Source: an uncultured Pseudobdellovibrionaceae bacterium (GTDB lineage: Bacteria; Bdellovibrionota_B; Oligoflexia; Oligoflexales; Bog-1112). Taken from it: a DNA stretch of 64,000 nt. Positions 35,353-55,258 of this stretch are shown here, in pieces; the first letter of the stretch is position 1, and each line of letters opens with the position of its first letter. The stretch lies in assembly GCA_964611335.1 (NCBI GenBank), contig CAZSXR010000003.1, forward strand, positions 461,265 to 525,264, written 5' to 3'. The notes under the pieces are model-generated. The model saw only the letters and a list, made by a program, of their open reading frames with translations, searched no databases and was not told where the DNA came from. Made by a program: the position numbers and the translations under genes.

Positions 35353-37161
35353 TTGTTGCAAGTTGATGCAAAAACTCTTCGATCCCTGAGACACCTTATT
35401 GGCAAGGAAGTTCAAAAACAGGGGTGGCGTTTTGCAGTCTATTTTCTTGTTATTGGGTTTGCAGGTATAGCAAGCATCCTTCCCCCCAAACTTTATGGCT
35501 ACTTCGCTGAACATATGGGAGCTATACAAAGTCTCAACGAGATTTCAGCTTCAGCTTTTCTGCATAATTTACTTCTTTTTGGAACTTTAATAGCAGTGAC
35601 TCTTTTCTTTTGTAATTTTGCAAGAGCTGTTACGGAAGAATGGATTTCTTTGCGTATTGAAGGAAGTCTTCGCATTCGATTTATGAGTTATATGCACCGT
35701 CTTCCTCTGGAATCTTTCGATGAATCTCAAAGGGGTGATTGGCTTACTCGGATGTCGGGAGATATACGGGCTGTAGAACAATTTATAGCGCTGCGACTTC
35801 CCAACCAGATCTCAGATGCGGTGGTGACTATTGCCATTGCAGTGATTTTCATAAGTCAAAATACTTGGGTCGCACTCTTTCTTATTCTCAGCACAGCGAT
35901 ACTTGCGTGCGTGAATGTCATCGTACAAGCGCGTTTAACTCCGATTCTGGATGAGCTGAGATTTCTGCATGGGGAAGTCTTACAAGGTTTACTTGAAAAC
36001 TTTGAAGGGATGCGTTCCATCCGTTCTTATCGTGCTGAAAATTTTATACTCACATTTTTTAAAGAAAGAGTTCAGATCATTATAGAAAAAGGTTTGCGTC
36101 TAATCCGCGTTATAGGTTTGCTTTTCGGAAGCAATTCTTTTCTTGTAAATATGCTTACGACACTCGCACTATCTTACGTTGCTTTCAAATTGCGAAACCA
36201 AGAGATTCTTGTTTCTGATGTGTTTCTATATCCATTCTATATTGGAATGTTCTACTCTTCCATCTTTGCGCTCGTTAGAGGTGTTTTTGATTGGAATGAT
36301 TTTGTGATTCATGCTTCGCGTTTGGATGAAGTTTTTCAATCAGCTACATCTGATCAGTACTTAGAAAAAGCTGTCTTTCAAAAACCTTTTGACACACTTG
36401 AAATAAAAAATGCAGTCATTGGTTATAAATCTTATGCGAAATTGACAAAGCCTTTTGATTTTAAAATTCAGAAAGGTGAGATTGTCGTCATTCGTGGACA
36501 CTCTGGTTGTGGCAAATCTACTTTTTTAGAATCGCTTGCAGGTTTAAGAGAATTGGAAGTTCAGTCTGCTCGACTCTTCCACCAAAATACGTTTGTTGAA
36601 AATTTCCCACAAAAAGACGGAAAAGTATCCTTACCAGTAGATCTCGGAGTATACGTAGAGCAGAAGCCTTATCTTCTCGAAGGTTCATTGAAAAACAATC
36701 TGCTTCTTGGTGATACTACACTTTCGGAAGATCGCCTGTGGTCTGCTTTAGAAGGTGTGAATCTACGCTCTTTTTTTGAAAAACGAGATGGTCTCTCCTT
36801 TTTTATCAAAGATAATGGACGCAATCTTAGTGAAGGTCAGAAACAACGTATAGGTATTGCAAGATCTTTGGTTCACTTACGCTCTCTTATTCTATTAGAC
36901 GAGCCTTTTGCTTCTTTAGATCAGGGTTCGATTTCCGTTCTTTCTAATGTGTTGAACAAGTTGAAATCCAATCATGGAATAGTGATTGTAAGCCATATTA
37001 TACCTGAAAGTTTGAGTTTCGATCGTGTAGTAGATTTCGATAGCTTTGTATATTCCAACGTATCGAAAGAATTTGAAGGTGATAATTTTTTTCAAAAAGA
37101 AAAATCTGAAATGTATTTAGCGGAAGCTCCTTTTGGAACTTTCGTTGAGTGTAATGTTTAA
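35353..37161 (+). CDS. Fused TMD-NBD ABC exporter (type I exporter); the likely exporter for the downstream peptides
   Basis: 6-TM N-terminal domain, Walker A GHSGCGKST, signature LSEGQKQRIGIARSL, Walker B LILLDEPFASLD. No C39 peptidase domain. The stop lies 17 nt before the first precursor gene. Confidence 0.85.
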   Translation: MLQVDAKTLRSLRHLIGKEVQKQGWRFAVYFLVIGFAGIASILPPKLYGYFAEHMGAIQSLNEISASAFLHNLLLFGTLIAVTLFFCNFARAVTEEWISLRIEGSLRIRFMSYMHRLPLESFDESQRGDWLTRMSGDIRAVEQFIALRLPNQISDAVVTIAIAVIFISQNTWVALFLILSTAILACVNVIVQARLTPILDELRFLHGEVLQGLLENFEGMRSIRSYRAENFILTFFKERVQIIIEKGLRLIRVIGLLFGSNSFLVNMLTTLALSYVAFKLRNQEILVSDVFLYPFYIGMFYSSIFALVRGVFDWNDFVIHASRLDEVFQSATSDQYLEKAVFQKPFDTLEIKNAVIGYKSYAKLTKPFDFKIQKGEIVVIRGHSGCGKSTFLESLAGLRELEVQSARLFHQNTFVENFPQKDGKVSLPVDLGVYVEQKPYLLEGSLKNNLLLGDTTLSEDRLWSALEGVNLRSFFEKRDGLSFFIKDNGRNLSEGQKQRIGIARSLVHLRSLILLDEPFASLDQGSISVLSNVLNKLKSNHGIVIVSHIIPESLSFDRVVDFDSFVYSNVSKEFEGDNFFQKEKSEMYLAEAPFGTFVECNV

Positions 37162-37178
37162 TTTCTTGGAGGTTTTTC

Positions 37179-37316
37179 ATGGTAAGAGAAGTGTCTGTTG
37201 AAAAAAATGAGTTTGGTATTGTGATCCGTCGTTGTGGACATCGTTGTGGACACCGTTGCGGACATCGTTGCGGACATCGTTGCGGACACCGTTGTAGTCG
37301 CTCTTGTCGTCGTTAA
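37179..37316 (+). CDS. Candidate RiPP precursor peptide 1 (45 aa): MVREVSVEKNEFGIVIRRCGHRCGHRCGHRCGHRCGHRCSRSCRR
   Basis: Not in the ORF track (<60 aa). ATG 37179 lies 6 nt after GGAGG (37168-37172); TAA at 37314. It has five in-frame CGHR units, with synonymous variation (tgt/tgc, cat/cac) between units. A DUF692 gene lies downstream. Confidence 0.75.
   Translation: MVREVSVEKNEFGIVIRRCGHRCGHRCGHRCGHRCGHRCSRSCRR
37230..37313 (+). repeat. 12-nt tandem coding repeat (cgt tgY gga caY) x5 plus a degenerate tail
   Basis: Read directly. Units start at 37230, 37242, 37254, 37266 and 37278, followed by the related cgt tgt agt cgc tct tgt cgt cgt. Confidence 0.9.
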
Positions 37317-37380
37317 ACTTCATTGAGTACAGAGATGGTCTTTGTACTGATTGAGTTCAATATTTTTTTGGAGCTTTTTC

Positions 37381-37530
37381 ATGGTAAGAGAAGTGTCTGT
37401 AGAAAAAAATGAGTTCGGTATTGTGATTCGTCGTTGCGGACACCGTTGTGGACAACGTTGCGGTGCACGTTGCGGTCATCGTTGTGGTCATCGTTGTGGT
37501 CATCGTTGTGGACGTCGCTGCGGACGTTAA
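37381..37530 (+). CDS. Candidate RiPP precursor peptide 2 (49 aa): MVREVSVEKNEFGIVIRRCGHRCGQRCGARCGHRCGHRCGHRCGRRCGR
   Basis: Not in the ORF track. ATG 37381 after GGAG (37370-37373); TAA at 37528. The leader is identical to peptide 1, with three silent nucleotide differences. Eight CGxR units. Confidence 0.75.
   Translation: MVREVSVEKNEFGIVIRRCGHRCGQRCGARCGHRCGHRCGHRCGRRCGR
37432..37527 (+). repeat. 12-nt tandem coding repeat (cgY tgY ggN nnN) x8
   Basis: Read directly. There are eight consecutive 12-nt units in frame with peptide 2. Confidence 0.9.
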
Positions 37531-37628
37531 TATCGCAGGCTCACTATAAACCATATGCGGTTTCGCAAAAGGTTTTAAGTGAGCATCCATTGAAAACTCT
37601 TATGTGTGGTTTGTGAAAGCGAGGCTTT

Positions 37629-38537
37629 ATGAAATCATTATACTTGGTGGACGACGTTAAAAATCAGCCGAAGTACGGTTTTGGCCTTGAGTGTTCGGGT
37701 GAACTCGCGAGAAGAGAAGATGTAGATTTATTGTTTAAAGAAGTTTCTTCTATCGAGATTATTCCTGAATCTTATTTTTTTAATAAACACTCAGAATTTA
37801 TTAGACGACTCGGAAATAGCCAAGTTCCCGTTATAGGTCATTGTGTAGACTTATCTCTCGGTACGGATGAGCCTCTAGATAAAAAGCACCTTGAACAAAC
37901 CAAAGAAGTTTTAGGTCAAGTCAATTGTGTGATCTTTAGTGATCATCTTTGTATGACAAGAGCTTCTGGAATTGATATAGGGCAACTTACAACTTTGCCT
38001 TTTACAAACAAAGTTGTCGATGTGGTCTGTCGCAATGTTGAGACTATTCAAAAAGAATTTTCTCAACCCTTTATGATTGAAAACATAACAAATCGTTTTA
38101 TTTATCCCGGAAATGAGCTGGACGAGCCCGCGTTTATCAATGCGGTCACGCGCAAATCAGGTTGCGGTCTTCTCTTAGATGTTACGAATCTTTATATCAA
38201 TAGCGTGAATCACAAATTTAATCCTTATCGCTGGTTGGATAAGATTGATGGCCGTTCTGTAATGGGTGTGCATCTTGCAGGTGGTATACAGGAAAAGGGT
38301 GTCCTTTATGATACCCACAGTCGTGCTGTTCCCAAAGCAGTGTGGGATTTGCTAGCTTATGCTCTTCAAAAAAGTAGGCCTGAAGTTTTGATCATCGAGT
38401 GGGATCAACATATGCCTAGTACAGAGCGATTGATTGAAGAATGCCGTTATGGTGAACACTTTATTTCGAAAGTACGTAGACCACGAATGCTCCCTTCTCG
38501 AATATCTCAGTTTGCTTCTACGGAGGTTACTTTATGA
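37629..38537 (+). CDS. DUF692 / MbnB-like multinuclear non-heme iron oxidase (MNIO), TIM-barrel
   Basis: Order and spacing of DUF692 hallmark motifs: GFGLE, IEIIPESYF, GHCVDLSLG, FSDHLCM, MIENITN, LLLDVTNLYINSVNHKFNP, GVHLAGG, LYDTHSRAVPKAVWDL, LIIEWDQ. His/Asp/Glu sit at the expected metal-ligand positions. Confidence 0.85.
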   Translation: MKSLYLVDDVKNQPKYGFGLECSGELARREDVDLLFKEVSSIEIIPESYFFNKHSEFIRRLGNSQVPVIGHCVDLSLGTDEPLDKKHLEQTKEVLGQVNCVIFSDHLCMTRASGIDIGQLTTLPFTNKVVDVVCRNVETIQKEFSQPFMIENITNRFIYPGNELDEPAFINAVTRKSGCGLLLDVTNLYINSVNHKFNPYRWLDKIDGRSVMGVHLAGGIQEKGVLYDTHSRAVPKAVWDLLAYALQKSRPEVLIIEWDQHMPSTERLIEECRYGEHFISKVRRPRMLPSRISQFASTEVTL

Positions 38538-39283
38538 GTTTGCATGGATTTCAAACAGCTCTTGCGGCTATTATTCGTCATCCTCGATTGAAATATAAAT
38601 GGGAACCTGAAGTGTTTTTCAAAAATTTTGAATTGAGTGGATCCGAGCGCAAAATTATTGAAACACTATCCCAGCATAAAGAATTAAATAAATACGGTAA
38701 AGACCAAGCTAACGGTCGTCTGGAAGTCATGTACAACCACTGTGATCGTGTTCCTAGACAGATACCTGATAGGGTTTTGAAAAATATCTGGTTTGATCTT
38801 TTCGAGCCAACAATTATGAAAACGCCAGGAGATCTTAAAGGTTCCTTCGAAACATCTCTCGCTTTTTTGAACTTTCTTGCAACAGATAAAGAAGCTCGTA
38901 AGCGACTGAAACGATCTGCTCCCTATTTTATTTTTGATCTTATTAAATTTGAAATTGCAGAATTGGAACTTTCTCGTCCTATTTTATTGGATGCTCCTTT
39001 GAAAGCAGAAAGTGTGCTTTCTCACCCTCACTTCCGCGTTATAGACCTCGAATTTGATGTTCCAGCTTGGCTAGCATCTTCGGAAGATGAAGATGAAATG
39101 AAATTTGAACGTTCTATGACGCTTGTTTTTGTAAAAGGGTCTGAATCCTATCCTAAAATTTTTGAAATTACACCGGAATATAGAAATTTCTTGCTTAGTC
39201 AAATATCAGGTGAGCAGAGTATAGATATGAGTGTTGCGATGAAATCAGATCTCGTAAAGATGGGACTTATTCTTCAGCACTAG
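38534..39283 (+). CDS. MNIO partner protein, DUF2063/MbnC-like (putative precursor-binding subunit)
   Basis: The start overlaps the DUF692 stop (ATGA at 38534-38537). N-terminal LHGFQTALAAIIRHP resembles the DUF2063 N-terminus. The position matches the partner gene of known DUF692 systems. The family call is tentative. Confidence 0.5.
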   Translation: MSLHGFQTALAAIIRHPRLKYKWEPEVFFKNFELSGSERKIIETLSQHKELNKYGKDQANGRLEVMYNHCDRVPRQIPDRVLKNIWFDLFEPTIMKTPGDLKGSFETSLAFLNFLATDKEARKRLKRSAPYFIFDLIKFEIAELELSRPILLDAPLKAESVLSHPHFRVIDLEFDVPAWLASSEDEDEMKFERSMTLVFVKGSESYPKIFEITPEYRNFLLSQISGEQSIDMSVAMKSDLVKMGLILQH

Positions 39284-41156
39284 TAATTCCCAATATTGCG
39301 AAAAAAACTTCGTTGTCAACAAACGCTGTATCGTTATCTTTCAACCCTCCTTGCGTGTACCATAAATCCTCAAGAACATTCCATCGGAAGACTTTCTTGT
39401 AGATATTGGTGATATCATCTGAGGCTTTTGAACACTGCTCTTGTCCTTTACATTCGGGTGCTTCTTTGTAAACTTCCATAAGCTGTCTCTCTAAAAACGC
39501 TTGTCCTCTGTAAAACTGAATGAAGGATTTAGGTAATAAAACCCCTAATTTTATAGCGCGATCGAAGAGTTCTTTGGCTTGATTGAGACCTGGGATTTTA
39601 GAAGCGGAATAGGAGTGAATCAATGCATTCACGTCTTCTTTTCTTACTCCCTCTTTCCAAGTCATAGCACCTTTGAGCCCATCTCCAATCAAACGTGCGT
39701 TCCCAAAAGAGATACCTAAAATAATTTTAAACAAAGATTTTGCTTCTTCTAAACTAAATTCACCCACACTTCCAAAGTCGATCAGAGTGAGCGTATATTT
39801 TGTAGGATTTTTGGTATCAGCATCTAAAAACACGTTGCCAGGATGCAGGTCTGCATGAAATACATGTTTACCAAAAATAGCTTCTCGAACCCACACATAC
39901 AATAATTGACTCAAGGCTTCTTTTTTAATTTTGTAAAATTCAGGGCCGAAATTTTGAATGCTTGATCCTTTAGCGCAATTTAAAAAAAGAACTTTAGATG
40001 TGGATTTTAGTTCCGAAACTTCACGATTAATTTTTAGATGGCCTTTTATTTGTCCATCGTAGAAAGATCCTTTGTGAATATTTTCGAGCTCGGTCAGAAA
40101 ATTCAATTCCTCAGTTAAAGCTTCTTCAAGATCTTTGATGAATTTTAAAATACTCTGATCTTCTGTGAGATTGCGGAGAACTGCGAATTCCCCTTCTGCT
40201 TTTTTATCAATTCCCGGTCTTTGAACTTTAATAATAACTTTCTGCCCCTTTAAATCTTCTACTAAATAAACCTGACCTACACTCGCTGCTGCTAGAGGCT
40301 TATCTGGAAAAGTTTTAAATACCGTTTCAAAAGAAACACCCATTTCCTGTTCTATAATCTCTTTTGCGAGAGGATTGGGAAACGCTTTGATGTTCTGTCT
40401 CAGTCTATTTAATACCTGTGTTAGTGCAGGTGAATTGACATCATTGCTAAACAATTGAAATGCTTTTTGAAGGACAGGACCGCAGTGATTTAAAATGACG
40501 CCAAGAACTTCTTGAGGTTCAGCATTTTCTTCAAGTAGGAGCACATCCGCCAATATAGAGCGTTTAGTTCCCATATCAAGTGCGTCAAAATATTTTTCTA
40601 AAACAAGTTGCAGGAAGTTTTTAAAAGCTTCAGGAACCTGGCTCAGATCGACTCCCTGTTCAGGACTCAGCAGCATAGTAATGGCTGTTGTTTTTGAAAA
40701 GTTAAAGTTCTTTACGGAAATATTGATAAGGGCGTCTAATTCCTCCAGAAGCGTGTCATCGAGAAGAGAACATATTTGAATCTGGGATAGAAAATTATAG
40801 GAAGCTCCTAAAAATTGGGAAGACAAAGAAGAAATTTGATTACCTGCAAGGGCGAGTAGGAGAGAGTTTAAAAGGGAATTATCACCTGATCCTTTTAAAA
40901 GTTCTTTGAGTCTTTTATCTTTTGCGATTTCATTCAGTGTTTGAGGATCTTTCAAGTAAAGCGCAACATCTCGAGTATCGCGAGTCAAAATATGTCTATA
41001 GGCTTTGTAAACTTCTTCTTTGGATCCGAGCCGGTCTTCACGAACGGCTACGAGTTTGGAGAGAAATTTTTGGAGTACATACTGTGGACTTTCCGCCTTG
41101 AGTGAAAAGGGAATAACAATAAAACTCAGAAGGTACAAAATACGCATGATTTTCAT
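39267..41156 (-). CDS. ABC1/UbiB-family atypical protein kinase with an N-terminal signal peptide
   Basis: AAASVGQVYLVE...KVIIKVQRPGI, FHADLHPGNVFL and LIDFGSVG are ABC1/aarF motifs. The N-terminus MKIMRILYLLSFIVIPFSLKA looks like a Sec signal. Confidence 0.78.
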   Translation of the reverse strand: MKIMRILYLLSFIVIPFSLKAESPQYVLQKFLSKLVAVREDRLGSKEEVYKAYRHILTRDTRDVALYLKDPQTLNEIAKDKRLKELLKGSGDNSLLNSLLLALAGNQISSLSSQFLGASYNFLSQIQICSLLDDTLLEELDALINISVKNFNFSKTTAITMLLSPEQGVDLSQVPEAFKNFLQLVLEKYFDALDMGTKRSILADVLLLEENAEPQEVLGVILNHCGPVLQKAFQLFSNDVNSPALTQVLNRLRQNIKAFPNPLAKEIIEQEMGVSFETVFKTFPDKPLAAASVGQVYLVEDLKGQKVIIKVQRPGIDKKAEGEFAVLRNLTEDQSILKFIKDLEEALTEELNFLTELENIHKGSFYDGQIKGHLKINREVSELKSTSKVLFLNCAKGSSIQNFGPEFYKIKKEALSQLLYVWVREAIFGKHVFHADLHPGNVFLDADTKNPTKYTLTLIDFGSVGEFSLEEAKSLFKIILGISFGNARLIGDGLKGAMTWKEGVRKEDVNALIHSYSASKIPGLNQAKELFDRAIKLGVLLPKSFIQFYRGQAFLERQLMEVYKEAPECKGQEQCSKASDDITNIYKKVFRWNVLEDLWYTQGGLKDNDTAFVDNEVFFAILGITSAEE

Positions 41157-42412
41157 TCTCCCTCAAACTTAAATAATGGAAGCAGATCATCGATATAAAC
41201 TTCCACGTTTGGTACGTTTGCATCTGGTGCGAGAGTGAGATGAGAATCTTTCCATCTCATAAAAAAACATTCCACCTTTGCGTTGCGTTTCACAACACAG
41301 ACTTCTTCGTTGAAATGTGCAATTTGAACGAGGGGACTTAGATCGGCAAGTTGCGTATTTACAGGAGTGGTGTTGGAGGGACCCCATATATGGGATAGAC
41401 CATTTTTACTAATTGAAAATCCTATATGAGCTCCCATTGCCATATAGATAATGGGACCAACTCTGTCAGGAAGGTGTAGGTTTGATGCGTAGGATCCCCA
41501 GCATTTCAGAGTGTCGTCTTCTAAAATAGCACAGGTATTGTATTCGCCTGAAAAAGCGCGCAAGACGGTATTAATGTCTTTAGGTATTTTCGTGGCACTC
41601 TCACTATTTTTTGATCCCCAACACCTTGGATGCATATCTTTATCGGTAACACAGACATGATGGTAACCAAGAGAAAATTGTGTAATAGGTCCTAAATCTT
41701 TAGGAATCGCTAAAACGTTTACCTCTAATTTTTCACCCCAAGCTTTTAAAACTCTGCTCTCTTCGAGTACGTAGGTCACATGAGGAACAGCAGAAACTTG
41801 CACGACTTTTCCTAGGTCGAGTGGAACTTCTCTTTCAATTTGACCCCAAGTGTAAACTTTCCCTTCTTCGGAGAGAGCACTTATATGATAGGAACCTGCT
41901 GATATTTCTTTGAGAGGGCCCATATTTTTAGGCATAATTTTGTTCGTTTCGGATTCTTCCTGAATCGACTTAGGTCCCCAACAGACCGCTTTTCGTTCTT
42001 TGTCAATGATGCATTTTTGACCCTCACTTATAGCAATACGTTGTGGGATATGACCGTTGTAATAACTGGTTTCTATTTTAGTTTGATCACGTTTCTCTTT
42101 GTCCTGTTTCTTTTTATTTATAAATTCTTGAATCCATATTTTTATATCTTCAATATCGAGTTCTTTTAATAAATGTTCTTCGAAAGTATCGTGATGCAGC
42201 GATCTTTCCGAGTCGCAGTGTTTTTGTTCGCAGTCTATGGGGTTAATCAGATTATTTTCTTTTATATGCTCTGCAAAAGATGTGAGTTCATCTTCTTCTA
42301 TAATTTTTAATTCGAAGAGTTGCGCAAAATAAGCTGTAAATTCTATAACAGGATTGTTTTGTGCGTTTGCAAGAAGGAATATACTTAGAAAGTAGAAAAT
42401 GCTTTTTTTCAT
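41153..42412 (-). CDS. Secreted RCC1-like repeat (beta-propeller) protein, paralogue A
   Basis: Signal MKKSIFYFLSIFLLANA. Periodic motifs CWGP, YTWGQ, KAWGE, RCWGS, KCWGS, HIWGP roughly every 45-50 aa. The N-terminal helical domain is shared with paralogue B. Confidence 0.6.
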   Translation of the reverse strand: MKKSIFYFLSIFLLANAQNNPVIEFTAYFAQLFELKIIEEDELTSFAEHIKENNLINPIDCEQKHCDSERSLHHDTFEEHLLKELDIEDIKIWIQEFINKKKQDKEKRDQTKIETSYYNGHIPQRIAISEGQKCIIDKERKAVCWGPKSIQEESETNKIMPKNMGPLKEISAGSYHISALSEEGKVYTWGQIEREVPLDLGKVVQVSAVPHVTYVLEESRVLKAWGEKLEVNVLAIPKDLGPITQFSLGYHHVCVTDKDMHPRCWGSKNSESATKIPKDINTVLRAFSGEYNTCAILEDDTLKCWGSYASNLHLPDRVGPIIYMAMGAHIGFSISKNGLSHIWGPSNTTPVNTQLADLSPLVQIAHFNEEVCVVKRNAKVECFFMRWKDSHLTLAPDANVPNVEVYIDDLLPLFKFEGE

Positions 42413-42575
42413 CTAGGTCTCCCAAAATCGCAACATGGAAGAAGATCTTCTATGTAAAGTTCTAAATTCTTAGGTGCTTGGTATTCATTGCTTCATAAAG
42501 ATCTTTCTTTGTTTTTCTTTCATACAAAAAGAAATCTACAAACCTTACTTTAAGAAAGATTTAAAATTGAATGCT
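42409..42575 (-). pseudogene. Frameshifted relic of the 3' end of a third RCC1-like paralogue
   Basis: On the minus strand one frame reads KVRFVDFFLYERKTKKDLYEAMNTKHLRI*, and a shifted frame reads PKNLELYIEDLLPCCDFGRPR*. Compare VECFFMRWK...VEVYIDDLLPLFKFEGE and PKELEIYIDDLLQKFK at the ends of the intact copies. Confidence 0.45.
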
Positions 42576-43832
42576 TTATTTAAATTTTTGGAGTAAGTCA
42601 TCGATATATATTTCTAACTCCTTAGGGGGAACAGGCATCTCCGTGTTAAGAAATACTTTTTGGTTTTTTCTTCCATTCACAGTTTCGTATCCGATATCGA
42701 AACCAAAACAATGAATTTTTGCCTTTGCATCGACTACACAGATTTGGGACGTCGAAGTGTACATGTAAACAATCGGGCTTAGAGCTTTTAAAAGGGGATC
42801 TAATTCAACAGGTAAACCTGAAGACCAACATTTCGGGACGCCATCTTTTTGAAGTGCGCAGGAATAAAATCGATCAGTAGCGATTTGAACCACAGGTCCC
42901 AAATCGGCTGGTGGTATAGATTCTCCCCATAAGCCACGTCCCCAGCATTCTACTTTTCCGTTTTCTAATAAAGCACAAGAGTGAAAAGTAGCGGCTGAAA
43001 TTTGTTTTAATGATCCAAGATTTGAAGGAATATCTTTTTGTTTGAAATCATTTTTTCCAAAACAGTGTCCATTCATATTGATATCGAGAGCACAAGCATG
43101 TTCTTCGCCAACAGAAATTTGAAAAAAAGTTTGATCAGAGGGTAGGGTTGCGTCATGGTAGTTATTAGAATCCAAAGATAAAGCTCTTCCTGTCTCATCC
43201 AGTACGTAGCTTACACGAGGACCTGAAGAGATTTGCACAATTTTAAGAGGTTGTGAGGATATTTTCCTAACACCCTTATAATTCCCCCAACTCTGTATGT
43301 CACCGCTTTCTTCCAAGGCGAAGAAAATTGAATCTTCAAAAGAGATTTCTTTAATATTCTTAGATGTGGGTATATTTCCTTTAGCACTTGGTCCCCAACA
43401 TACAATTTTGTGTTCTTTATCTATTGCGCAGGTATTTTCAGACCATCCTGCTACGCGTTGGGGCATGTTTCTTTTCCAAAGTGATTGAGTTTCTTCTTTC
43501 ATTTCATTGCGTTTTTGTTCATCTTGCTTTCTTCTTCTTAGAAAATTCTGAAGCCATATTTTAAGACTTTCTAAATCCAAGTCTTTTTCAAGATGTGATT
43601 CGAGCATTTCATAGTGGAGTGTTCTATCGGAATTACAGTGCTTGATTGTGCAGTTTATCGGATTGATAAGGTCATTTTTATCTAAATTGTCTGCGAAACT
43701 TATGATCTCTTCATCTGTAATTACTTTAATTTCAAGTAATTGCTTAATATAAGCTTCGAATGCTACTGTGGACTCTTCAAGAGTATTTCCAAGCATGAGT
43801 ATGCTTAAAATTAAAATTAATTTTTTCATCAT
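42576..43832 (-). CDS. Secreted RCC1-like repeat (beta-propeller) protein, paralogue B
   Basis: Signal MMKKLILILSILMLGNT. Motifs VCWGP, QSWGN, HCFGK, ECWGR and KCWSS. The N-terminal ~110 aa is clearly homologous to paralogue A (INPI(N/D)C..KHC(N/D)S(D/E)R(T/S)LH). Confidence 0.6.
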   Translation of the reverse strand: MMKKLILILSILMLGNTLEESTVAFEAYIKQLLEIKVITDEEIISFADNLDKNDLINPINCTIKHCNSDRTLHYEMLESHLEKDLDLESLKIWLQNFLRRRKQDEQKRNEMKEETQSLWKRNMPQRVAGWSENTCAIDKEHKIVCWGPSAKGNIPTSKNIKEISFEDSIFFALEESGDIQSWGNYKGVRKISSQPLKIVQISSGPRVSYVLDETGRALSLDSNNYHDATLPSDQTFFQISVGEEHACALDINMNGHCFGKNDFKQKDIPSNLGSLKQISAATFHSCALLENGKVECWGRGLWGESIPPADLGPVVQIATDRFYSCALQKDGVPKCWSSGLPVELDPLLKALSPIVYMYTSTSQICVVDAKAKIHCFGFDIGYETVNGRKNQKVFLNTEMPVPPKELEIYIDDLLQKFK

Positions 43833-46800
43833 TTCTCCACTCCACCTGCATAGTTTAAGAAGTGACGAAGCTGTTCCTGTTCGATGTCGTCGAACTCATT
43901 GAGTGGGATTCTTGTTAAAGTTTCCATATGAATCATCAGATCGTCGCAAACTTTTTCCAGAAGAGACCTATTTTTGAAAATATAGGATTTTGCAAAAATA
44001 CGGAGACGTTCTAAATGCTGAGCCAAAGGACGATTGTGTTTTATGTTTTTCCAAGACAAACTTTCCAAGTCTTTGTAGTATTGTAAAGGCAATTTGTGAG
44101 TCTTATTTATATCCTTGGCACGTTCCGATAGTAAAATCGCAAGTCGACTGGCTTCTTGAAGTTGTATAGAAACATTCGAACTCAAAGAAGATGTTGAGTG
44201 CTCAGTATAAAGAACGCTGCTGTCGACTTTTAAATCTTTTTTTGCTGCATCAAACAAATAACTATGCATAAGTTCTCTTGTAAACTCACTATAGAATCCA
44301 TTTTCAAAGCCAATGCTGCGTGAGTCCATTGCAAATTTGATAAGATCCTGATTGGTGTCTCCAATCGCTATAAACATAGCTTGAACAGGTGTTCTGCGAT
44401 CTATTGCGTTTCTAGCTTTTGTGAGTTCTTCGAGATTGACTTGTGAACCACCGTCGGACATCAGAACGATATTGGCAGCCGCAAGAGGCTCGCCTGCACG
44501 TTTTTCTGCGTCTGCAATAAGTGCAAGGGCCTGTATCATTGCTTTTTGAATGTCGGTTCCTCCACCGGCTCTAGCAAGTTTTGAAGCATAATTGTGTATG
44601 AGATCCAAAGCTTCTTGAGTCGTTGTGATACGTGTGGGTTCTCCAGGTTTGTCATCGAAAGGAATCAGAAGAACGCGATGCTTGTGATGTCCACTTGCAG
44701 AAATTTCACTTAAAGCACGAGCAGTGAAGGCAGAAATAAGACCTGCCTGAAATTTTGCAGGATCTCCACCCATACTTCCTGAAATGTCATAAAGCACAAT
44801 CGTGATTTTTTCCGAGTCTTCTTTTCCTCGTCCCGTAGGAAGCTGCAGGTGTTTACGGCGTGTCATAACATAAGCAGTATTTTCTTTAATATTATCTTCG
44901 ATACTGAGACCGGGTTGCATCAAGATAGCCCGTGCCATTTCCGCAAATCTTTGCAGAGGCATAAGATTGCGTCCCATAGGTCGAGGAAGGTCTCTTAGCC
45001 ATGAAAGCACTTCTTGAAACTCAGGGCGTGGAGTTGAACTCATAATAAAATCTGTAACAGGATATAAGCTTGCAAGTAGACGCAAGTCGTACATTTTTCC
45101 TTCGTGCATCAGTCTTGCTATTTCTTTAGTCGGAGCATTCGGACCTACAGTTTTTAAACTGTATTGCTGCTGTAAGTAGTTTTGAACTAAAGGAGGAAGA
45201 CTATCATAGAAAGCTTTGACGGCTGAAATCTCTTGAGAATCGACGTGTGATAAACCATAAATTTCGGACTGAACTTTATTCAAAGCATGGATCAAAGCAC
45301 TTGCAAGAGCTCTATCTGTTTCTTCATCCAGTACACTTGTAAAAAACTCTACTGACTTTTTAGCTCTGTAAACATCTTTGTAAGTGCTTGCTAAATCTCT
45401 TTTATTTAACATCAGGTCCGTATAACGGATCCAATTTTCCAAATTTTCATGTTCATTTTCATGGATACGTAAAGCTCCGTTATAAATTTCTTCAAGTTTG
45501 TTATCTTTTACACTTCTAAACAAAGATTTCGCCTTATTGAGAAGGTCCAAAGTCACACTCCCCTTATTGTTGGGATCGAGTATAACTTGCAAAAGAACAC
45601 GCAAAGCACGTTCACGGAATGGATTCCGCTCGGGACTCGGTTCGAGTTCCAAAGAACCCAATTCTAGTTTGCTTGCAAGTTCTTCGGAATTTATGTCGGA
45701 GAGTGCGTCTTTCTTATCTTTTGTATCCTCTGTTTTTGTTGAGTTCTTGTCTTTTGCAAAATCTTTAAGACGATCTTCCGTATCTTTTTTCAACTGCTCT
45801 TCTTTGGAAAGAGGTTTGTCCCTCTTTTCATCTCCTTTTGCCTGAGAGTCTGGAGTCCCATCTTTAGAATCTTTGTCTTCTTCCGGTGGCTCTACAAGAG
45901 GATTGGGAAGATCTCTATCAGAATATTCATCTTTTTCCCCCTCTTCGTCTTGTTTATCTTTCTTGTCTTTTTTTACAGGGGTTGGATCGAAAGGAATCCA
46001 ACGACCTTCATTATAAACTTCAACCCATGCGTGAGCTTCCCCAGGCATTACCAAATAACTTTTTTTGTCAGCGCCATTTTTATGTTTTTTTGCTCTGAAT
46101 CCACCCACCACTCGAGAAGGAATTTTATAGACATCACGAAGCAAGGACACCATTGTGTAAGCAGCCATATCACATTGAAAGGCCCCCGCTTCGAGTGCTT
46201 TGATGGGATCTGTTTCTGAACGTTCTCCGACACTGTACAGGTATTTGCTTGCAATATGTGCTGCGATTGCTTGAGAAAGATGTTCTACATTTTTTGTATG
46301 ATCTTCCTCAGGTTTGAAAGCTTGGAACAGAGTTGTTTTTATCAAACTTGGCCACTCTTCCAGTTTAAAACCTACAGGACGTGTGTAGATTTCTAACAAA
46401 GGTGGTGACAGTGTTTCGAGAGTTGAAGAACTCAAAGGTATAATCACTTCATCTAATTCTGTACTCATCGTGAGATCATAAGAACCCTTTGTGTTTCTAA
46501 GGACCTCCACTCTCGGATCTGAAGCCTGCAAAGGCTTATAGGAAGGAGGGAGAAAGATGCGTACCTTTTTATTTCCGTATGTATGAAGAATCAGCTGTGC
46601 ATTCGAATCTTTGTTAGTAGAAGGATTTTGAAAAATACCAGGAAGATTTGCTTCCTGAAGGGGATATTGTGCACCTCTTATAATTTCAGAAAAATACCTT
46701 TGACCAAAGTAAGGTGTTTCAAAATTCACTTCCGCAACTATATATTGATCTTCTTTTTCACCTTTACTCTTATCTTTTTCCGTGTCTTTAGTATTGGGCT

Positions 46801-47344
46801 TGTATTTGTCTGGGGTTTCGGGATAACGAGGCTTTTGTTTTTGCTTATCCCCTTTTGTATTTTCATCTTTTGTATCTTGGTCATCTTTTTTATTTTCGTC
46901 GTTTGATTTGTCAGATTCTTCTACAGCTTCGAAGCGTTGTAGATATTGAGAAAGAAATTGCAGTGCTAGAAGATTGGATTGCAAGTCAATTTGTGGGCAA
47001 CGTTTGCGAGTAATAAGGTTTGTCGAATCGCTAATAACTTCGTTAATCAGCTTTTTGTCGAGAGCTGTCTCCGAAGCTATGAAATTCTTCAGTGCAAAGT
47101 TGACCCTTGAAAGAGAGCTGCGCTGATTCATGCGTTCGAAAAGTGCTTTGCCGCTTTCTATCGAGAAGACTCGCGCAAAGGGATCGTGATGTGGAAACAA
47201 ACGCGTTGTATAAGCTTGGATGAGTATTTTTATTTTGGAGGAAGCTTCTCTTAGCTCAGAGTCGTTATTCTCAAGAGCAAAAGACAAATCTCTAAGAAAA
47301 AAAATGAAGATTAAAAAAAATATTTTCAAGCATCTACAACGCAT
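43829..47344 (-). CDS. Giant exported protein: transglutaminase-like cysteine protease core plus a C-terminal von Willebrand factor A domain
   Basis: TGase triad context GAFQCDMAAY, GEAHAWVEVYNEGRWIPFDPTP. vWA MIDAS ITIVLYDISGSMGG and VLMSDGGS. Two Lys/Asp/Glu-rich disordered linkers. N-terminal hydrophobic signal/anchor. Start is ATG 47344 (after GAGGGG) or GTG 47356. Confidence 0.72.
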   Translation of the reverse strand: MRCRCLKIFFLIFIFFLRDLSFALENNDSELREASSKIKILIQAYTTRLFPHHDPFARVFSIESGKALFERMNQRSSLSRVNFALKNFIASETALDKKLINEVISDSTNLITRKRCPQIDLQSNLLALQFLSQYLQRFEAVEESDKSNDENKKDDQDTKDENTKGDKQKQKPRYPETPDKYKPNTKDTEKDKSKGEKEDQYIVAEVNFETPYFGQRYFSEIIRGAQYPLQEANLPGIFQNPSTNKDSNAQLILHTYGNKKVRIFLPPSYKPLQASDPRVEVLRNTKGSYDLTMSTELDEVIIPLSSSTLETLSPPLLEIYTRPVGFKLEEWPSLIKTTLFQAFKPEEDHTKNVEHLSQAIAAHIASKYLYSVGERSETDPIKALEAGAFQCDMAAYTMVSLLRDVYKIPSRVVGGFRAKKHKNGADKKSYLVMPGEAHAWVEVYNEGRWIPFDPTPVKKDKKDKQDEEGEKDEYSDRDLPNPLVEPPEEDKDSKDGTPDSQAKGDEKRDKPLSKEEQLKKDTEDRLKDFAKDKNSTKTEDTKDKKDALSDINSEELASKLELGSLELEPSPERNPFRERALRVLLQVILDPNNKGSVTLDLLNKAKSLFRSVKDNKLEEIYNGALRIHENEHENLENWIRYTDLMLNKRDLASTYKDVYRAKKSVEFFTSVLDEETDRALASALIHALNKVQSEIYGLSHVDSQEISAVKAFYDSLPPLVQNYLQQQYSLKTVGPNAPTKEIARLMHEGKMYDLRLLASLYPVTDFIMSSTPRPEFQEVLSWLRDLPRPMGRNLMPLQRFAEMARAILMQPGLSIEDNIKENTAYVMTRRKHLQLPTGRGKEDSEKITIVLYDISGSMGGDPAKFQAGLISAFTARALSEISASGHHKHRVLLIPFDDKPGEPTRITTTQEALDLIHNYASKLARAGGGTDIQKAMIQALALIADAEKRAGEPLAAANIVLMSDGGSQVNLEELTKARNAIDRRTPVQAMFIAIGDTNQDLIKFAMDSRSIGFENGFYSEFTRELMHSYLFDAAKKDLKVDSSVLYTEHSTSSLSSNVSIQLQEASRLAILLSERAKDINKTHKLPLQYYKDLESLSWKNIKHNRPLAQHLERLRIFAKSYIFKNRSLLEKVCDDLMIHMETLTRIPLNEFDDIEQEQLRHFLNYAGGVEK

Positions 47345-47357
47345 GAGACCCCTCACC

Positions 47358-48815
47358 TTATTTTTGGCCTTGCATAATCAGAAATTCAAAATCGCTATCT
47401 GCGCAATGTGCACTGCCTAAGCAGCTGCCCGATGCAAGTTTGATGTGTTTTTGAAGGTCTGTGTATTTTGCAAGAAGAACATCACGGAATCTTTTTTGTT
47501 CCTCGATCAGATTGTGAATAAGACCTCTTTCACGTTCATCTCTCGCTTTGCTTGGATCTATAGTCCAACCGAAATCGATGTCGACTTGGCTTTCATCGTT
47601 TGTAAGCTTCAATCGAGTTGTACCGGGGCCGATTGTGGTCATGACGAGATAGGCTCTCCATAGAGAAAGAACACCGAGTTCTATAGGTTTCTGCGTGGAA
47701 ATAGTGAGATCATCTGCAAGATTCGAGAGTAAAAAATCTACAAAAGCGGAAAGTTGAATCACTGTAGGAATACGTAAAAGATTGCGTGTGTTGTAATCAC
47801 AAGAAGGGAAGTAGACAAAAGTTTCTTTGCGATCCTTTACATTTCTTTCAGAAATTTCGATCGCGTCATGTGTGATTTCACGCATTTTTGCAAGAAGTTC
47901 GTTGTAAGATAGGTCAAACATATGAGTCGTTTTCATCATGACTGTCGAAAGAAATCGCAGAGTTTCCCAATCAATGACTTCAGCCTCCAAAAAAACGCTG
48001 TTGTTTTGAGCCTTTTCTGAGACTTTCCTGAGTGCTGCGAGTTTGCGTTTTTCTTTTTCGCGCTTGAGAAGTTCTTCACGTTGGGTTTCATCAAGCCAGT
48101 TGTATGCAAAGACTTTGTAACGGAAACGGTTTAAAAAAGCGGGAGCAGTTGTGCCTAAACCATTCAGCATAAATTGTTCGAAAATTTCGGGAAGATTGGC
48201 ATTGCTTGTAGCAAAAATGGTTTCCGTTTTTGCTTTTATGAGTTTGTTACCAGCCATCACTTCTCTTTCTTCAAGGAGGCTGAGTAAGCTGGAGAGTGCT
48301 GCAGGGTTTCCTTTTTCCGCTTCATCGAGAAGTGCTACAGCGTAATCCGCAAGTGAACCTGTGGTGTTGATTTCGAATTGACCCAGTTTTGCTTTTTCAA
48401 AATTCTGACCACCTGTAAATGCCTGTTCGGTGATCATTTGATGGAGCTGCATCTGGAAAGTAGGATCTTTCTCTCCTTTAAGTATCCATCTTACAAGCGC
48501 AGACTTAGCACTTCCTGGAGGCCCGTAAAGGAACATATTTCCCTTATCTAAACGTGCAAGCGTTGCTGCGTGATGTACGGTTCCTAAATTCAAAAAGGTA
48601 TTGTCGAAAACACGAAAGCGTCTACGCAGTGTGTCTCGCAGTTCGGAAAGTTTAGTGATGCCTTCAGGGGTAAGGCCTTCAAATTCCATGGTTGTTTCGT
48701 TGATATTCACGAGAGAGTTCAGAGTTGAATTTGTAGGAATGTCTGCAAAGCTGGGGCTTGTCATAAAACTCAGAGCCGTATAGAAGCCTACGGTTTTGAC
48801 GAGCTTGAATCTCAT
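47358..48815 (-). CDS. MoxR/RavA-like AAA+ ATPase
   Basis: Walker A LYGPPGSAKSALV, Walker B ALLDEAEKGNPAALSSLLSLLEERE. It is followed immediately by a vWA-domain gene, the classic MoxR-vWA pairing. The N-terminus MRFKLVKTVGFYTALSFMTSPSFA is signal-like. Confidence 0.72.
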   Translation of the reverse strand: MRFKLVKTVGFYTALSFMTSPSFADIPTNSTLNSLVNINETTMEFEGLTPEGITKLSELRDTLRRRFRVFDNTFLNLGTVHHAATLARLDKGNMFLYGPPGSAKSALVRWILKGEKDPTFQMQLHQMITEQAFTGGQNFEKAKLGQFEINTTGSLADYAVALLDEAEKGNPAALSSLLSLLEEREVMAGNKLIKAKTETIFATSNANLPEIFEQFMLNGLGTTAPAFLNRFRYKVFAYNWLDETQREELLKREKEKRKLAALRKVSEKAQNNSVFLEAEVIDWETLRFLSTVMMKTTHMFDLSYNELLAKMREITHDAIEISERNVKDRKETFVYFPSCDYNTRNLLRIPTVIQLSAFVDFLLSNLADDLTISTQKPIELGVLSLWRAYLVMTTIGPGTTRLKLTNDESQVDIDFGWTIDPSKARDERERGLIHNLIEEQKRFRDVLLAKYTDLQKHIKLASGSCLGSAHCADSDFEFLIMQGQK

Positions 48816-48900
48816 GTTGAGTCTTCCTTTTTGAAATCAAAGATCTTTAAAGGAAGTCAATCTATGTGAAACTGTATGAGGGGATTATTATCAGGATATG

Positions 48901-49863
48901 TCAAAACAACACGGTCATTCCTGCTCCCATAGTTTGTCCTGCAAATAACGGATTGAAGAGATACACGGGTTCCACTCTTCGACCACTTTTATTTTTCAAA
49001 TTCGCTTCTTCAATTTTACGATAATTGTTCACAGCTATTTCTCCAAAGGCATAACCAATTCCAATTGCAAGTGGATAATCGCTGAACCAATGCACACCGT
49101 TGTTCATCATTTGAAAACTCAGTAGAGTTAATAAACTGATACCAAGAGGTTTGATGAATACATACTCAGGATAATTTTTTGCAATCACTGTGAGTGTCAT
49201 CGTACCCGTAGCTAGATGCCCTGAAGGAAAAGCATCATAAGCTGGAACATCTTTGTGATAAGCTCGTTGATTCGGAAAAAATCTCCATTGTCCGCGGTCG
49301 CGTGTTCGCACTCCTGGGCTTTCTCTTCCTGTAATATGTTTAAGAAACTGTGTTGTAAAACCTGTCGTCAACAAACCCTCAAAAATAGCGTAACTCGTGC
49401 TCCAAGCTCTATAATCTTCCGCAAAATATCCATATCCTAAAAAAGCAACAGCGAGGGAAAGATGAGTCCATCCATCTCCAATAAAATACATCCAAGAACC
49501 TAAATCTGTAGGACCTCGAACGTTGAAGGAAGAGATTTTAAAAAAAGTTTTAGTATTGTCTTTTGATGCAATGTTGAGTTTTTTCCCCCAATCTTGAGCA
49601 CCTATAAGCAAATCTTCATCATAGTAAATAGTAAGAGCTGTGCTTGCTGCAATCGCTAAGATGTGAGGAAGATGTTTACGATCGATGTCGTTTTCATAAA
49701 GGAGTTTGAAGTCTTTAAAAAAATTCGAGACGAAAGGAATACCGCTGGGTCTTGAATAATTATATGTCTCGTTCTCTGAAACTTTGTAAGTCTGAGTATC
49801 TTCCGCATGCAGTGCAGAAGATATAAGAAAGCAAAAGAAAAAAGATCTATAACGTAGCTTCAT
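48901..49863 (-). CDS. PAP2-superfamily phosphatase (exported)
   Basis: KHITGRESP, FPSGH and HWFSD match the three PAP2 motifs, approximately. The start MKLRYRSFFFCFLISSALHA (ATG 49863) gives a signal peptide. Confidence 0.6.
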   Translation of the reverse strand: MKLRYRSFFFCFLISSALHAEDTQTYKVSENETYNYSRPSGIPFVSNFFKDFKLLYENDIDRKHLPHILAIAASTALTIYYDEDLLIGAQDWGKKLNIASKDNTKTFFKISSFNVRGPTDLGSWMYFIGDGWTHLSLAVAFLGYGYFAEDYRAWSTSYAIFEGLLTTGFTTQFLKHITGRESPGVRTRDRGQWRFFPNQRAYHKDVPAYDAFPSGHLATGTMTLTVIAKNYPEYVFIKPLGISLLTLLSFQMMNNGVHWFSDYPLAIGIGYAFGEIAVNNYRKIEEANLKNKSGRRVEPVYLFNPLFAGQTMGAGMTVLF

Positions 49864-49908
49864 CAATTTTGAACTCCCAATATTTAAAATCCTGGCTATA
49901 ATAAAAAA

Positions 49909-51138
49909 ATGCAAATCCAAAAATCTTCAGAAAATTTGATTATTTTCATACTCTCGGGATTGTTTTTCTTTCACATCCTAGAGTTTATGATCATTATGCC
50001 TTTAGGTCCCCAATTGATGCAGGTTCTAGGGATCAATGCGACGCAATTCAGTCACCTTGTAGCTGTTTACAATTTTGCTGCGGCCACAAGTGGAGTTTTA
50101 GGTCTCTTTTGGATGGATCGCTGGGACCGTAAAAAAGTTTTGATCGTCGTAAATGTACTCTTTGCTTTTGGTACTGCAATCTGTTTTATGACGACAAGTT
50201 ATCCTGCGCTCTTAACTGCGAGGTTTCTTACAGGTGCTTTCGGTGGTGTAATTGGCGCACTCTGTATGACGGTTATCGGTGATCTTGTTCCTATGGAAAG
50301 ACGGGGTTTTGCTATGAGCAAACTCATGTCCGCGTTTTCTCTTGCATCCATAGCAGGTATACCTTTGGGCTTGAGTCTGGCGGCTCATTTTTCTTGGCAA
50401 ACGCCTTTTATCGTAATCACTTCTGGCAGTTTATTATTCTGCACTATTGCTTATTTTAAAATGCCCCCTTTGAGATCACACTTGCACGAAGGCATGAAAA
50501 CTTCTTTTAAAGACTTACTCGAAATTGTTTTAGATCATAAACATCATCTGTGTTTTGTTTTTATGGTGCTGCTCATGTTCAGTCAGTTTATGGTCATTCC
50601 CTTTATCAGCTCTGCGCTTGTTGGAAATGCAGGAATGACGCAGGGGCAATTGCCTCTTGTGTATTTGGTAGGTGGTCTTGCGACTGCAATTACAAACCCG
50701 AGCATTGGAAAACTTTCTGATTATTATAAGAAAGAATTTATTTTTAAAATTTGTGCTGTAATGGCGTGGATTCCCCTTCTCATACTGACACATCAAGGAG
50801 CTTCCTCTTTGTTTTTTTGCATCTTCGTAACAACATTATTTTTTATTTTCAACAGTGGACGTATGTCTCCTGCTATGGCTATCATTACATCGGTGGTTGA
50901 AGCGCATAAACGTGGACGCTTCATGAGTTTAAATTCTGCTGTGCAACAAGCGTCAGCTGGTCTTGCTGCATGGTTGGGTGGTATGATTGTCACAAGTGAT
51001 ACAAGTGGGAAACTGCACGGTTTATATTTTACTGGTTACATTTCCGTTCTTGCTGGCTTTTTGAGTGTCTACTGGGTGCGACGACTGTCCTTTACCTCCA
51101 CTGTTCAACGCACTGACAGTATTCAAGAAAGTGAGTAA
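49909..51138 (+). CDS. MFS transporter
   Basis: 409 aa, 12 TM helices, with a DRWDRKK loop motif between TM2 and TM3. Confidence 0.78.
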   Translation: MQIQKSSENLIIFILSGLFFFHILEFMIIMPLGPQLMQVLGINATQFSHLVAVYNFAAATSGVLGLFWMDRWDRKKVLIVVNVLFAFGTAICFMTTSYPALLTARFLTGAFGGVIGALCMTVIGDLVPMERRGFAMSKLMSAFSLASIAGIPLGLSLAAHFSWQTPFIVITSGSLLFCTIAYFKMPPLRSHLHEGMKTSFKDLLEIVLDHKHHLCFVFMVLLMFSQFMVIPFISSALVGNAGMTQGQLPLVYLVGGLATAITNPSIGKLSDYYKKEFIFKICAVMAWIPLLILTHQGASSLFFCIFVTTLFFIFNSGRMSPAMAIITSVVEAHKRGRFMSLNSAVQQASAGLAAWLGGMIVTSDTSGKLHGLYFTGYISVLAGFLSVYWVRRLSFTSTVQRTDSIQESE

Positions 51139-53950: not shown

Positions 53951-54006
53951 GATCGCCCCAAAAAAATCCTAATTTTGTTTTAAAAACAGCATTTTAACAT
54001 GATTTT

Positions 54007-54034
54007 TAAGTTTTTTCACAAGAAACTCCGTTAA
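54007..54034 (+). promoter_or_regulatory. Sigma-28 (FliA)-like promoter candidate upstream of surface-protein paralogue 1
   Basis: TAAGTTTT-N12-TCCGTTAA, compared with the textbook TAAAGTTT-N11-GCCGATAA. It lies 41 nt upstream of ATG 54076. Confidence 0.3.
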
Positions 54035-54075
54035 GGAGTGTGAACAATTGTGGGTGAAACAATTTAGGTTTGACT

Positions 54076-55206: not shown

Positions 55207-55231
55207 AAAAACAACAGCTTGGAAGAAAATT

Positions 55232-55258
55232 TAAGGTTTAGCAAAGGAATTCCGTTAA
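55232..55258 (+). promoter_or_regulatory. Sigma-28 (FliA)-like promoter candidate upstream of surface-protein paralogue 2
   Basis: TAAGGTTT-N11-TCCGTTAA. It matches 7/8 and 6/8 of the sigma-28 -35 and -10 consensus at canonical spacing, 45 nt upstream of ATG 55304. Confidence 0.35.

Follow-up and report, generated by a model that had tools for sequence, protein, structure and literature searches.

A predicted Sec-exported MoxR-vWA system with a transglutaminase-like domain and modular binder proteins in Bdellovibrionota-type bacteria, next to a separate family of signal-bearing ABC1 kinases

The locus and the unit that recurs

The stretch of DNA analysed here, 64,000 nucleotides from an uncultured Pseudobdellovibrionaceae bacterium (contig CAZSXR010000003.1, positions 461,265 to 525,264) and referred to throughout as the window, carries on its minus strand a run of five genes whose products all begin with a signal-type N-terminus, two of these products being ATP-dependent enzymes, namely a MoxR-type AAA+ ATPase and an ABC1 kinase. 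We read four of the genes, with a probability of about 0.6, as encoding a Sec-exported version of the MoxR-vWA "ternary" chaperone and processing system, in which a protein combining a transglutaminase (TGase) and a vWA domain would act as the co-chaperone and two adaptor-propeller proteins as the binders. The five genes and their parts are the following, with the outer coordinates on the window and all on the minus strand:

47358..48815, minus strand: MoxR-type AAA+ ATPase, 485 residues (Pfam PF20030 bpMoxR 8.8e-19, AAA_5 1.1e-15); predicted signal at residues 1-24 (nucleotides 48744-48815), AAA+ core at residues 63-251 (48063-48629)
43829..47344, minus strand: TGase-vWA protein, 1171 residues from its ATG (Pfam Transglut_core 3.8e-13, VWA_2/VWA_CoxE); predicted signal at residues 1-23 (47276-47344), TGase core at about 45983-46276, vWA domain with MIDAS site at about 44351-44818
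42576..43832, minus strand: RCC1-B, third component B, 418 residues (Pfam RCC1_2 2.5e-17); hydrophobic N-terminus at residues 1-17/24, helical adaptor of about 100 residues at about 43473-43775, RCC1-like seven-blade propeller at about 42633-43460
41153..42412, minus strand: RCC1-A, third component A, 419 residues (Pfam RCC1_2 7.4e-13); predicted signal at residues 1-17 (42362-42412, ending ...LLANA/QNN), then adaptor and RCC1-like propeller
39267..41156, minus strand: ABC1/UbiB-family atypical kinase, 629 residues (Pfam PF03109 3.2e-37, 128.4 bits); predicted signal at residues 1-21 (41094-41156), kinase domain at residues 251-487 (39696-40406)

RCC1-A and RCC1-B are paralogues with 37% identity. 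Four-nucleotide ATGA overlaps join TGase-vWA to RCC1-B and RCC1-A to the kinase gene, which is probably co-transcribed with the system through this overlap, while the gap from MoxR to TGase-vWA measures 13 nucleotides and that from RCC1-B to RCC1-A 163; a scan of 38900-50200 for promoters and terminators gave counts at or below the shuffled expectation and did not inform the operon boundaries. All five starts have a Shine-Dalgarno-like motif 4-10 nucleotides upstream (AGGAAG for the AAA+ gene, GGTGAGGGG for TGase-vWA, GGAG for RCC1-B, GGGAGA for RCC1-A, and GAGGGAGA for ABC1). The start of TGase-vWA is the ATG at 47344, as the GTG at 47356 chosen by the open reading frame (ORF) finder falls within the ribosome-binding site GGTGAGGGG itself, and the next Met of the AAA+ protein lies inside or past the signal and lacks a ribosome-binding site. 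The original prediction had allowed for downstream starts that would drop the hydrophobic segments, and no such start was found close by in any of the five ORFs.

A scan of species-representative genomes yielded about 20 orthologous loci, all of them in metagenome-assembled genomes (MAGs) and labelled as Bdellovibrionales, Pseudobdellovibrionaceae, Bacteriovoracales, Oligoflexales, Myxococcales, Myxococcaceae, Deltaproteobacteria, Ca. Altimarinota, or simply "uncultured bacterium", the labels thus being mostly those of Bdellovibrionota or Myxococcota. The MoxR and TGase-vWA genes are adjacent in every related locus, one to four third components stand before or after the pair wherever the contig continues, and no further conserved gene was found across the approximately 20 loci. 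The third components, 20 of which were aligned, share behind the leader a helical adaptor of about 100 residues with a near-invariant N-P, followed by a C-terminal module that varies from locus to locus: an RCC1 propeller in the window and in L005, L007, L008, and L011; a propeller of another kind in L006; an FGE-sulfatase module, which is lectin-like, in L002, L012, and L019 (weak in L019, below the Pfam cut-off); FGE-sulfatase together with leucine-rich repeats (LRRs) in L015 and L021; and LRRs alone, as far as Pfam detects, in L017 and L018. An ankyrin protein takes the third-component position only in the distant L022 locus. As judged from this gene order, the conserved unit is a MoxR ATPase, a TGase-vWA protein, and one to four adaptor-binder proteins, which makes the window genes four plus one, and the five-gene set originally proposed therefore survives only in part, with the MoxR, TGase-vWA, and RCC1 proteins recurring together and the orthologues of the kinase lying elsewhere.

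The ABC1 kinase was considered as a fifth conserved member and rejected, given that it is absent from the approximately 20 system loci and that its own orthologues occur in four contexts without MoxR and vWA genes. These four orthologues, at 73, 56, 51, and 50% identity, have unrelated neighbours and have all kept their leaders; the loci concerned (L056/L057/L058, L059, L061, and L062) include as neighbours gidA with a beta-CASP nuclease, an ABC transporter, hipBA, and a RIO1 kinase. The signal-bearing ABC1 subfamily, which spans 46-73% identity to the window protein, appears on these grounds to be a stand-alone exported kinase. Its closest solved relatives are COQ8/ADCK3, and the window protein scores far below the UbiB equivalogs (TIGR01982, 130.1 bits against a cut-off of 487.55; PRK04750, 92.6 against 667). 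It resembles UbiB and COQ8 in the KxGQ lid, the A-rich loop, the catalytic Lys, HxDxHPGN, and DFG, but whereas UbiB is anchored to the membrane on the cytoplasmic side, the window kinase has an N-terminal signal in place of the anchor and lacks ubiquinone-pathway neighbours.

Active sites, leaders, and propellers

The window ATPase is, on its profile match (67.8 bits to PF20030 bpMoxR, cut-off 27), a divergent bpMoxR; its closest solved relative is RavA (E=1e-8), and its family is small, as HMMER run exhaustively over 1.84 billion cluster representatives brought up no more than 157 members at E<=1e-10. Its motifs comprise Walker A K104, Walker B D164/E165, sensor-1 N205, and arginine finger R230, and among 139 aligned family members, in an alignment that reaches down to about 25% identity, K104, N205, and R230 are invariant and the Walker B D-E is kept in 136-138. 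The P-loop reads GPPGSAKS in the window, within a family range of GPPG[GSA]AK[ST] and beside a consensus of GPPGGAK[ST]. The family also has signal-bearing versions of about 1000 residues with two tandem AAA+ modules (L022 at 9758-12838, P0232, P0244, P0247, P0250, and others like them), and at L022 the tandem MoxR is followed by a vWA protein and the ankyrin-repeat third component, all with leaders.

In the TGase-vWA protein, the Cys-His-Asp triad is present in 17/18, 18/18, and 18/18 orthologues, respectively, and each MIDAS element (D-x-S-x-S, T, and D) in all 18. No solved homologue of this protein was found by sequence, the approximately 170 residues that trail the vWA domain gave no Pfam match to a propeller, and the sole hydrophobic 19-mer is the one at the N-terminus. 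The kinase motifs (KxGQ, K310, HxDxHPGN, and DFG) are found in 15 of 15 members of the signal-bearing ABC1 subfamily. A scan against NCBIfam returned only sub-threshold RavA and UbiB matches, and none of the PADLOC defence models matched any of the four system proteins, the kinase giving no more than noise. Because the catalytic residues are conserved across the families, the ATPase, the TGase-vWA protein, and the kinase are, as far as sequence can tell, not decayed pseudo-enzymes, and the paradox of ATP-dependent enzymes behind export signals, to which the original prediction drew attention, is a genuine one.

Signals were scored with a heuristic of our own that looks at the charge of the n-region, at the hydrophobic and uncharged core, and at agreement with the -3/-1 rule. 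The five ORFs all pass, with a net positive n-region, a core of 10-12 residues, and a predicted signal length of 17-24 residues, and candidate cleavage sites of the A-x-A type are present in the AAA+ protein (SFA/D), TGase-vWA (SFA/L), RCC1-A (ANA/Q), and ABC1 (LKA/E). Given the background in the window, five passes in a row would arise by chance with P of about 0.03. That background of signal-like N-termini is high in part because of a cluster of putative lipoproteins on the plus strand at 51182-57609, made up of a 922-residue protein followed by three paralogues of about 350-380 residues, with lipobox-like N-termini such as ...VSYISCG, ...FVLASCGG, and ...LAKYSCGP.

The stronger support comes from relatives. 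Among the full-length MoxR relatives 123-127 of 138 (about 92%) pass the heuristic, and of the 37 long tandem-AAA+ forms 34 do, against none of 120 ParC and 1 of 25 Clp-type AAA+ controls; in the related loci 18 of 21 TGase-vWA proteins and 24 of 27 third components pass, and so do all nine ABC1 orthologues of at least 46% identity. Nearly all of the 71 word-index matches to the AAA+ protein open with textbook leaders (e.g., MKYLFLMVFLFSGLAQA/TD and MFKTIFSILLLTTPVLA/QN), and across more than 150 independently called homologues the leader sequence is not conserved while its hydrophobic character is always kept. MoxR relatives that fail are mostly fragments or have mis-called starts. At L016, the one orthologous locus where MoxR and TGase-vWA appeared to lack leaders, the cause lies in the assembly, in a frameshift that leaves the leader upstream in another frame and in an N-run at the start of the gene, the signal being encoded just upstream; the sites concerned (9600-10060 and 11300-11560) illustrate how assembly errors can mimic signal loss. 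In view of this conservation across relatives, and with chance alone at a P of about 0.03, the five-gene signal observation is robust, and the signal-type N-termini reported in the original prediction are confirmed at the sequence level as real on all five proteins. With a median signal length of 23 and a median core of 12 residues in the MoxR family, the leaders have the size of Sec signals and not that of transmembrane helices.

Two other routes of sorting were set aside: none of the five leaders has the RR motif of Tat export, and the residues that precede a recurrent post-signal Cys in the sister systems (K, D, N, E, or Q) are unlike a lipobox. This lone Cys lies 2-12 residues past the predicted cleavage site in a C-x-x-[LF]-[LF]-like motif in most sister systems (L002, L003, L004, L006, L010, L012, L019, L022, and many of P0006-P0332), where it is common to the MoxR, TGase-vWA, and third-component proteins of one locus; it is absent from the window. 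A Cys within 20 residues occurs in 114/162 MoxR relatives, compared with 29/78 signal-bearing control ORFs, and the motif itself in 69/162 compared with 6/78, with no conserved intramolecular partner in MoxR, and it may constitute a shared tether, sorting, or mixed-disulfide tag.

The propellers provide evidence on the compartment. An AlphaFold2 model of RCC1-B, built from a two-sequence alignment and of medium quality (pLDDT 68; about 75-85 in the propeller, with the adaptor domain not resolved), gave its best E-value in a fold search to UVR8, a cytoplasmic plant photoreceptor, and its lowest root-mean-square deviation and highest identity to the CR4/ACR4 receptor ectodomain and to secreted BLIP-II. 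By sequence, the L011 orthologue matches BLIP-II best (9e-28) and ACR4 next (2e-20), and the matches of RCC1-A in the PDB include both, with eukaryotic RCC1/SRM1 slightly better. Orthologous propellers have one Cys pair per blade in a recurring h-T-C-A-x...G-x-v-x-C-W-G pattern, which in L011 aligns Cys-for-Cys to ACR4 in six repeats; in the window propellers the pair is kept in 4-5 of seven blades (five in RCC1-B) and lost in 2-3. In the crystal structure of the CR4 propeller each such pair is a blade disulfide, which, in the view of its authors, may be an adaptation to the extracellular environment (10.1101/2020.08.10.245050). Because the propeller Cys pairs align to the CR4 disulfides, they favour an oxidising compartment (the periplasm, the cell surface, the medium, or a prey periplasm) over the cytoplasm. 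The premise of the original prediction that RCC1 proteins are rare in bacteria and known chiefly as Legionella effectors was too narrow, since among solved structures BLIP-II, which is secreted, and the ectodomain of CR4 come closest.

Immediately upstream of MoxR and on the same strand lies a gene for a PAP2-family phosphatase (48901-49863, minus strand), whose product, read from an internal ATG, also begins in a signal-like manner (MKLRYRSFFFCFLISSALHA/EDT), the longest ORF beginning with TTG at 49920; it is not conserved as a neighbour in the related loci. On the other side, the kinase gene is adjoined at 35353-39283 on the plus strand by a cluster resembling those for ribosomally synthesised and post-translationally modified peptides, composed of the following genes:

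35353-37161, plus strand: ABC exporter
37179-37316 and 37381-37530, plus strand: two tandem small ORFs
37629-38537, plus strand: DUF692/MbnB_TglH_ChrH enzyme
38534-39283, plus strand: 249-residue partner

In the peptides encoded by the small ORFs, MVREVSVEKNEFGIVIRR precedes six to eight RCG[HQAR] repeats, and the product could be a metal-binding peptide rich in Cys and His.

Site of action and competing explanations

We favour the reading that the four genes encode a Sec-exported MoxR-vWA system, and we consider the envelope or the extracellular space the more likely site of its action. Once exported through Sec, the parts would come together in the envelope or beyond the cell, where the binder subunits would catch a target, the adaptor-binder proteins thus conferring target specificity; the MIDAS site of the vWA domain would grip a peptide belonging to either binder or target, the MoxR hexamer would use nucleoside triphosphate to remodel or release it, and the TGase-like domain would cleave or cross-link it. 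This sequence of recruitment by vWA, remodelling by MoxR, and processing by the TGase-like (TGL) domain is inferred by analogy with precedent. The ATP would stem from a low periplasmic, extracellular, or vesicle pool or, should the carriers be predators, from prey that has been permeabilised; a predatory lifestyle of the host, an Oligoflexia-like Bdellovibrionota bacterium, is plausible but unproven. The placement of the host comes from its ParC, for which the best relatives with a name are in a Deltaproteobacteria MAG (67%) and in Oligoflexales MAGs (51-55%).

Several observations weigh against this reading. The AAA+ leader has a weak core, with a mean Kyte-Doolittle value of 1.41, which bears out the earlier judgement that none of the other four signals is as weak; a canonical A-x-A site is missing from RCC1-B, which offers instead G-N-T, aligned to the A-N-A of RCC1-A, or a distant T-V-A; and the heuristic is permissive, half of the 44 other window ORFs passing it. 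That MoxR, TGase-vWA, and the third components physically interact is deduced from synteny only, and a profile comparison of the adaptor with TGase-vWA or MoxR found no common docking domain, only the signal segments being aligned. The carriers are all uncultured MAGs. The energy supply calls for caution: the original prediction took the periplasm to be free of ATP, which remains the textbook position and yet is too absolute, as E. coli is reported to have micromolar ATP in the periplasm and ATP in outer-membrane vesicles (PMC7432876, a review). No extracytoplasmic supply is established, however, at the sub-millimolar concentrations usual for MoxR enzymes, for which the Km of 0.55 mM of p618 of the archaeal virus ATV provides a reference (PMC4124505).

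The effector role that the original prediction preferred, in which the exported set is delivered into the ATP-rich cytoplasm of a prey or host cell and the ATPase and kinase act there, would account for export signals on ATP-dependent enzymes with intact sites, and it accords with carriers that bear nearly all Bdellovibrionota- or Myxococcota-type labels, lineages with many predators, and with the occurrence of effector-typical modules in the third components, namely RCC1, LRR, and, at L022, a distant locus, ankyrin. It has found no direct support and is somewhat disfavoured, in that the per-blade Cys pairs match proven extracellular disulfides and point to an oxidising site, and that no translocon or injection apparatus was noticed in the approximately 20 loci, the neighbours there not having been run against Pfam nor the other window ORFs annotated. 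Injected effectors, moreover, do not usually travel via Sec signals, and Oligoflexia are not known to be uniformly predatory. The layout of adaptor plus binder, too, resembles sensor and conflict systems and not effectors (PMC7159879). Taken together, we regard delivery into another cell's cytoplasm as unlikely. The paradox would also vanish if the N-termini were uncleaved anchors of inner-membrane proteins with their domains facing the cytoplasm, for which speak the hydrophobicity of the TGase-vWA and ABC1 N-termini (means of 1.8-2.0 over 19 residues), the charged residues (R and D) in the c-region, and the lack of a clean A-x-A site in RCC1-B. The uncharged cores (10-14 residues here, family median 12, in signals of median 23) are nevertheless too short for a stable helix, A-x-A-type sites are common among relatives, and the propellers have Cys pairs of the disulfide type; the core is preceded on its N-terminal side by the positive charges, an arrangement for which the positive-inside rule places the C-terminal domain outside, so that even anchored, these leader segments would put the domains beyond the membrane. 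This alternative, also named in the original prediction, is accordingly improbable.

A further explanation accepts export but denies nucleotide turnover, the ATPase and kinase serving as holdases or binding scaffolds whose motifs are retained for folding or nucleotide binding only. It agrees with the textbook view that usable ATP is absent from the periplasm and with the many catalytically inactive enzyme domains of related conflict systems (Kaur et al., PMC7159879); it sits poorly with the conservation of the Walker B Glu, the sensor-1 Asn, and the arginine finger, which serve hydrolysis and not binding, in 138-139 of 139 sequences, and with the catalytic Lys, HxD, and DFG of all 15 kinases, and we hold it to be a poor candidate. 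An annotation artefact, with true starts downstream and the hydrophobic N-termini never translated, would find some excuse in the tendency of ORF finders to over-extend, as with the GTG of TGase-vWA and the TTG of the PAP2 gene, but it has to contend with Shine-Dalgarno motifs ahead of the signal-encoding ATGs, with the position of the next AAA+ Met, and with the leaders kept by independently called homologues, and it can be considered very improbable.

Envelope biology takes it that no ATP-driven enzyme operates beyond the inner membrane, a premise that is held to explain the build of the Lpt, Lol, TonB, Tol-Pal, and Bam machineries. A MoxR family of about 150 sequence clusters, with predicted leaders and conserved hydrolysis residues, cuts against this premise of an ATP-free envelope. 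The bolder proposition, that the AAA+ clade and, separately, the ABC1 clade turn over ATP beyond the cytoplasmic membrane and that ATPase, TGase-vWA, and binders form an ATP-powered machine for capture and processing, is a tentative one, which we would at present rather doubt than assert. If true, Bdellovibrionota- or Myxococcota-type bacteria would need to have usable nucleotides available in the periplasm, on the cell surface, or in the prey compartment, contrary to the rule that envelope machines import their energy from the cytoplasm. The system offers a cloneable test case for extracytoplasmic ATP use and its site, for the purpose of such use in predatory-lineage bacteria, and for target recognition by MoxR-vWA systems, and the analysis separates it from the neighbouring exported ABC1 family.

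Relation to known MoxR-vWA systems and propellers

MoxR-vWA "ternary" systems have hitherto been known only from cytoplasmic predictions, and phrase searches of the literature for "periplasmic", "secreted", or "exported" AAA+ or MoxR proteins found nothing. The nearest described relatives are the MoxR-vWA-beta-propeller ternary conflict systems of Kaur et al. 2020 (PMC7159879; Pfam PF20030 bpMoxR), which likewise comprise a bpMoxR, an adjacent vWA partner, and a third component with a hydrophobic N-terminus and a propeller; there as here, the position that varies is filled by FGE-sulfatase, LRR, ankyrin, and propeller modules. The vWA protein of those systems, however, has, on the C-terminal side of its vWA domain, a propeller with roughly four blades, whereas the window protein has an N-terminal TGase domain and no propeller, and the P-loop GxxxTAKS of the beta-propeller and FtsH systems is absent from the present MoxR family. 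Their third component pairs a variable membrane-spanning N-terminus with a C-terminal TPR/propeller region, whereas here it is the N-terminal domain that is conserved and the C-terminal module that varies, with no TPR. The phyla also differ (Bacteroidetes, Planctomycetes, Verrucomicrobia, and Proteobacteria in Kaur et al.), and signal peptides, predicted here on every component, are not mentioned in that paper, the supplement of which contains no Bdellovibrio, transglutaminase, RCC1, or signal peptide.

The most economical mechanistic template would be the operon of MoxR, vWA, and a YebA-like TGL protein described by Zhang & Aravind 2012 (PMC3495828) and proposed to form a membrane-proximal degradation system that recruits, unwinds, and cleaves. 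It unites the same three activities, a MoxR unfoldase, a vWA recruiter, and a TGL domain with a Cys-His-Asp triad; there, however, the TGL domain forms part of a cytoplasmic loop in a protein with eight transmembrane segments and MoxR is cytoplasmic, whereas here the TGL domain is fused to vWA in a soluble, signal-bearing protein and binder subunits are added. That paper, too, makes no mention of signal peptides. The only extracellular precedent found for a MoxR protein is the pair of MoxR p618 and vWA p892 of ATV, which has been assigned to the development of the virion tail outside any cell (PMC4124505); the likeness is one of described role, as the archaeal-viral pair is packaged in the virion and not Sec-exported and has no TGase or propeller partners.

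The window propellers share the compact seven-blade RCC1-like fold of BLIP-II from Streptomyces and of CR4/ACR4, both of which are protein or ligand binders, and differ from them in sitting behind a novel adaptor domain and in being genetically tied to a MoxR-vWA pair. Set against these precedents, what would be new, on the evidence of the sequences, is a MoxR-vWA-TGL system addressed to Sec in its entirety and equipped with modular binders, together with an unrelated family of predicted exported ABC1 kinases.

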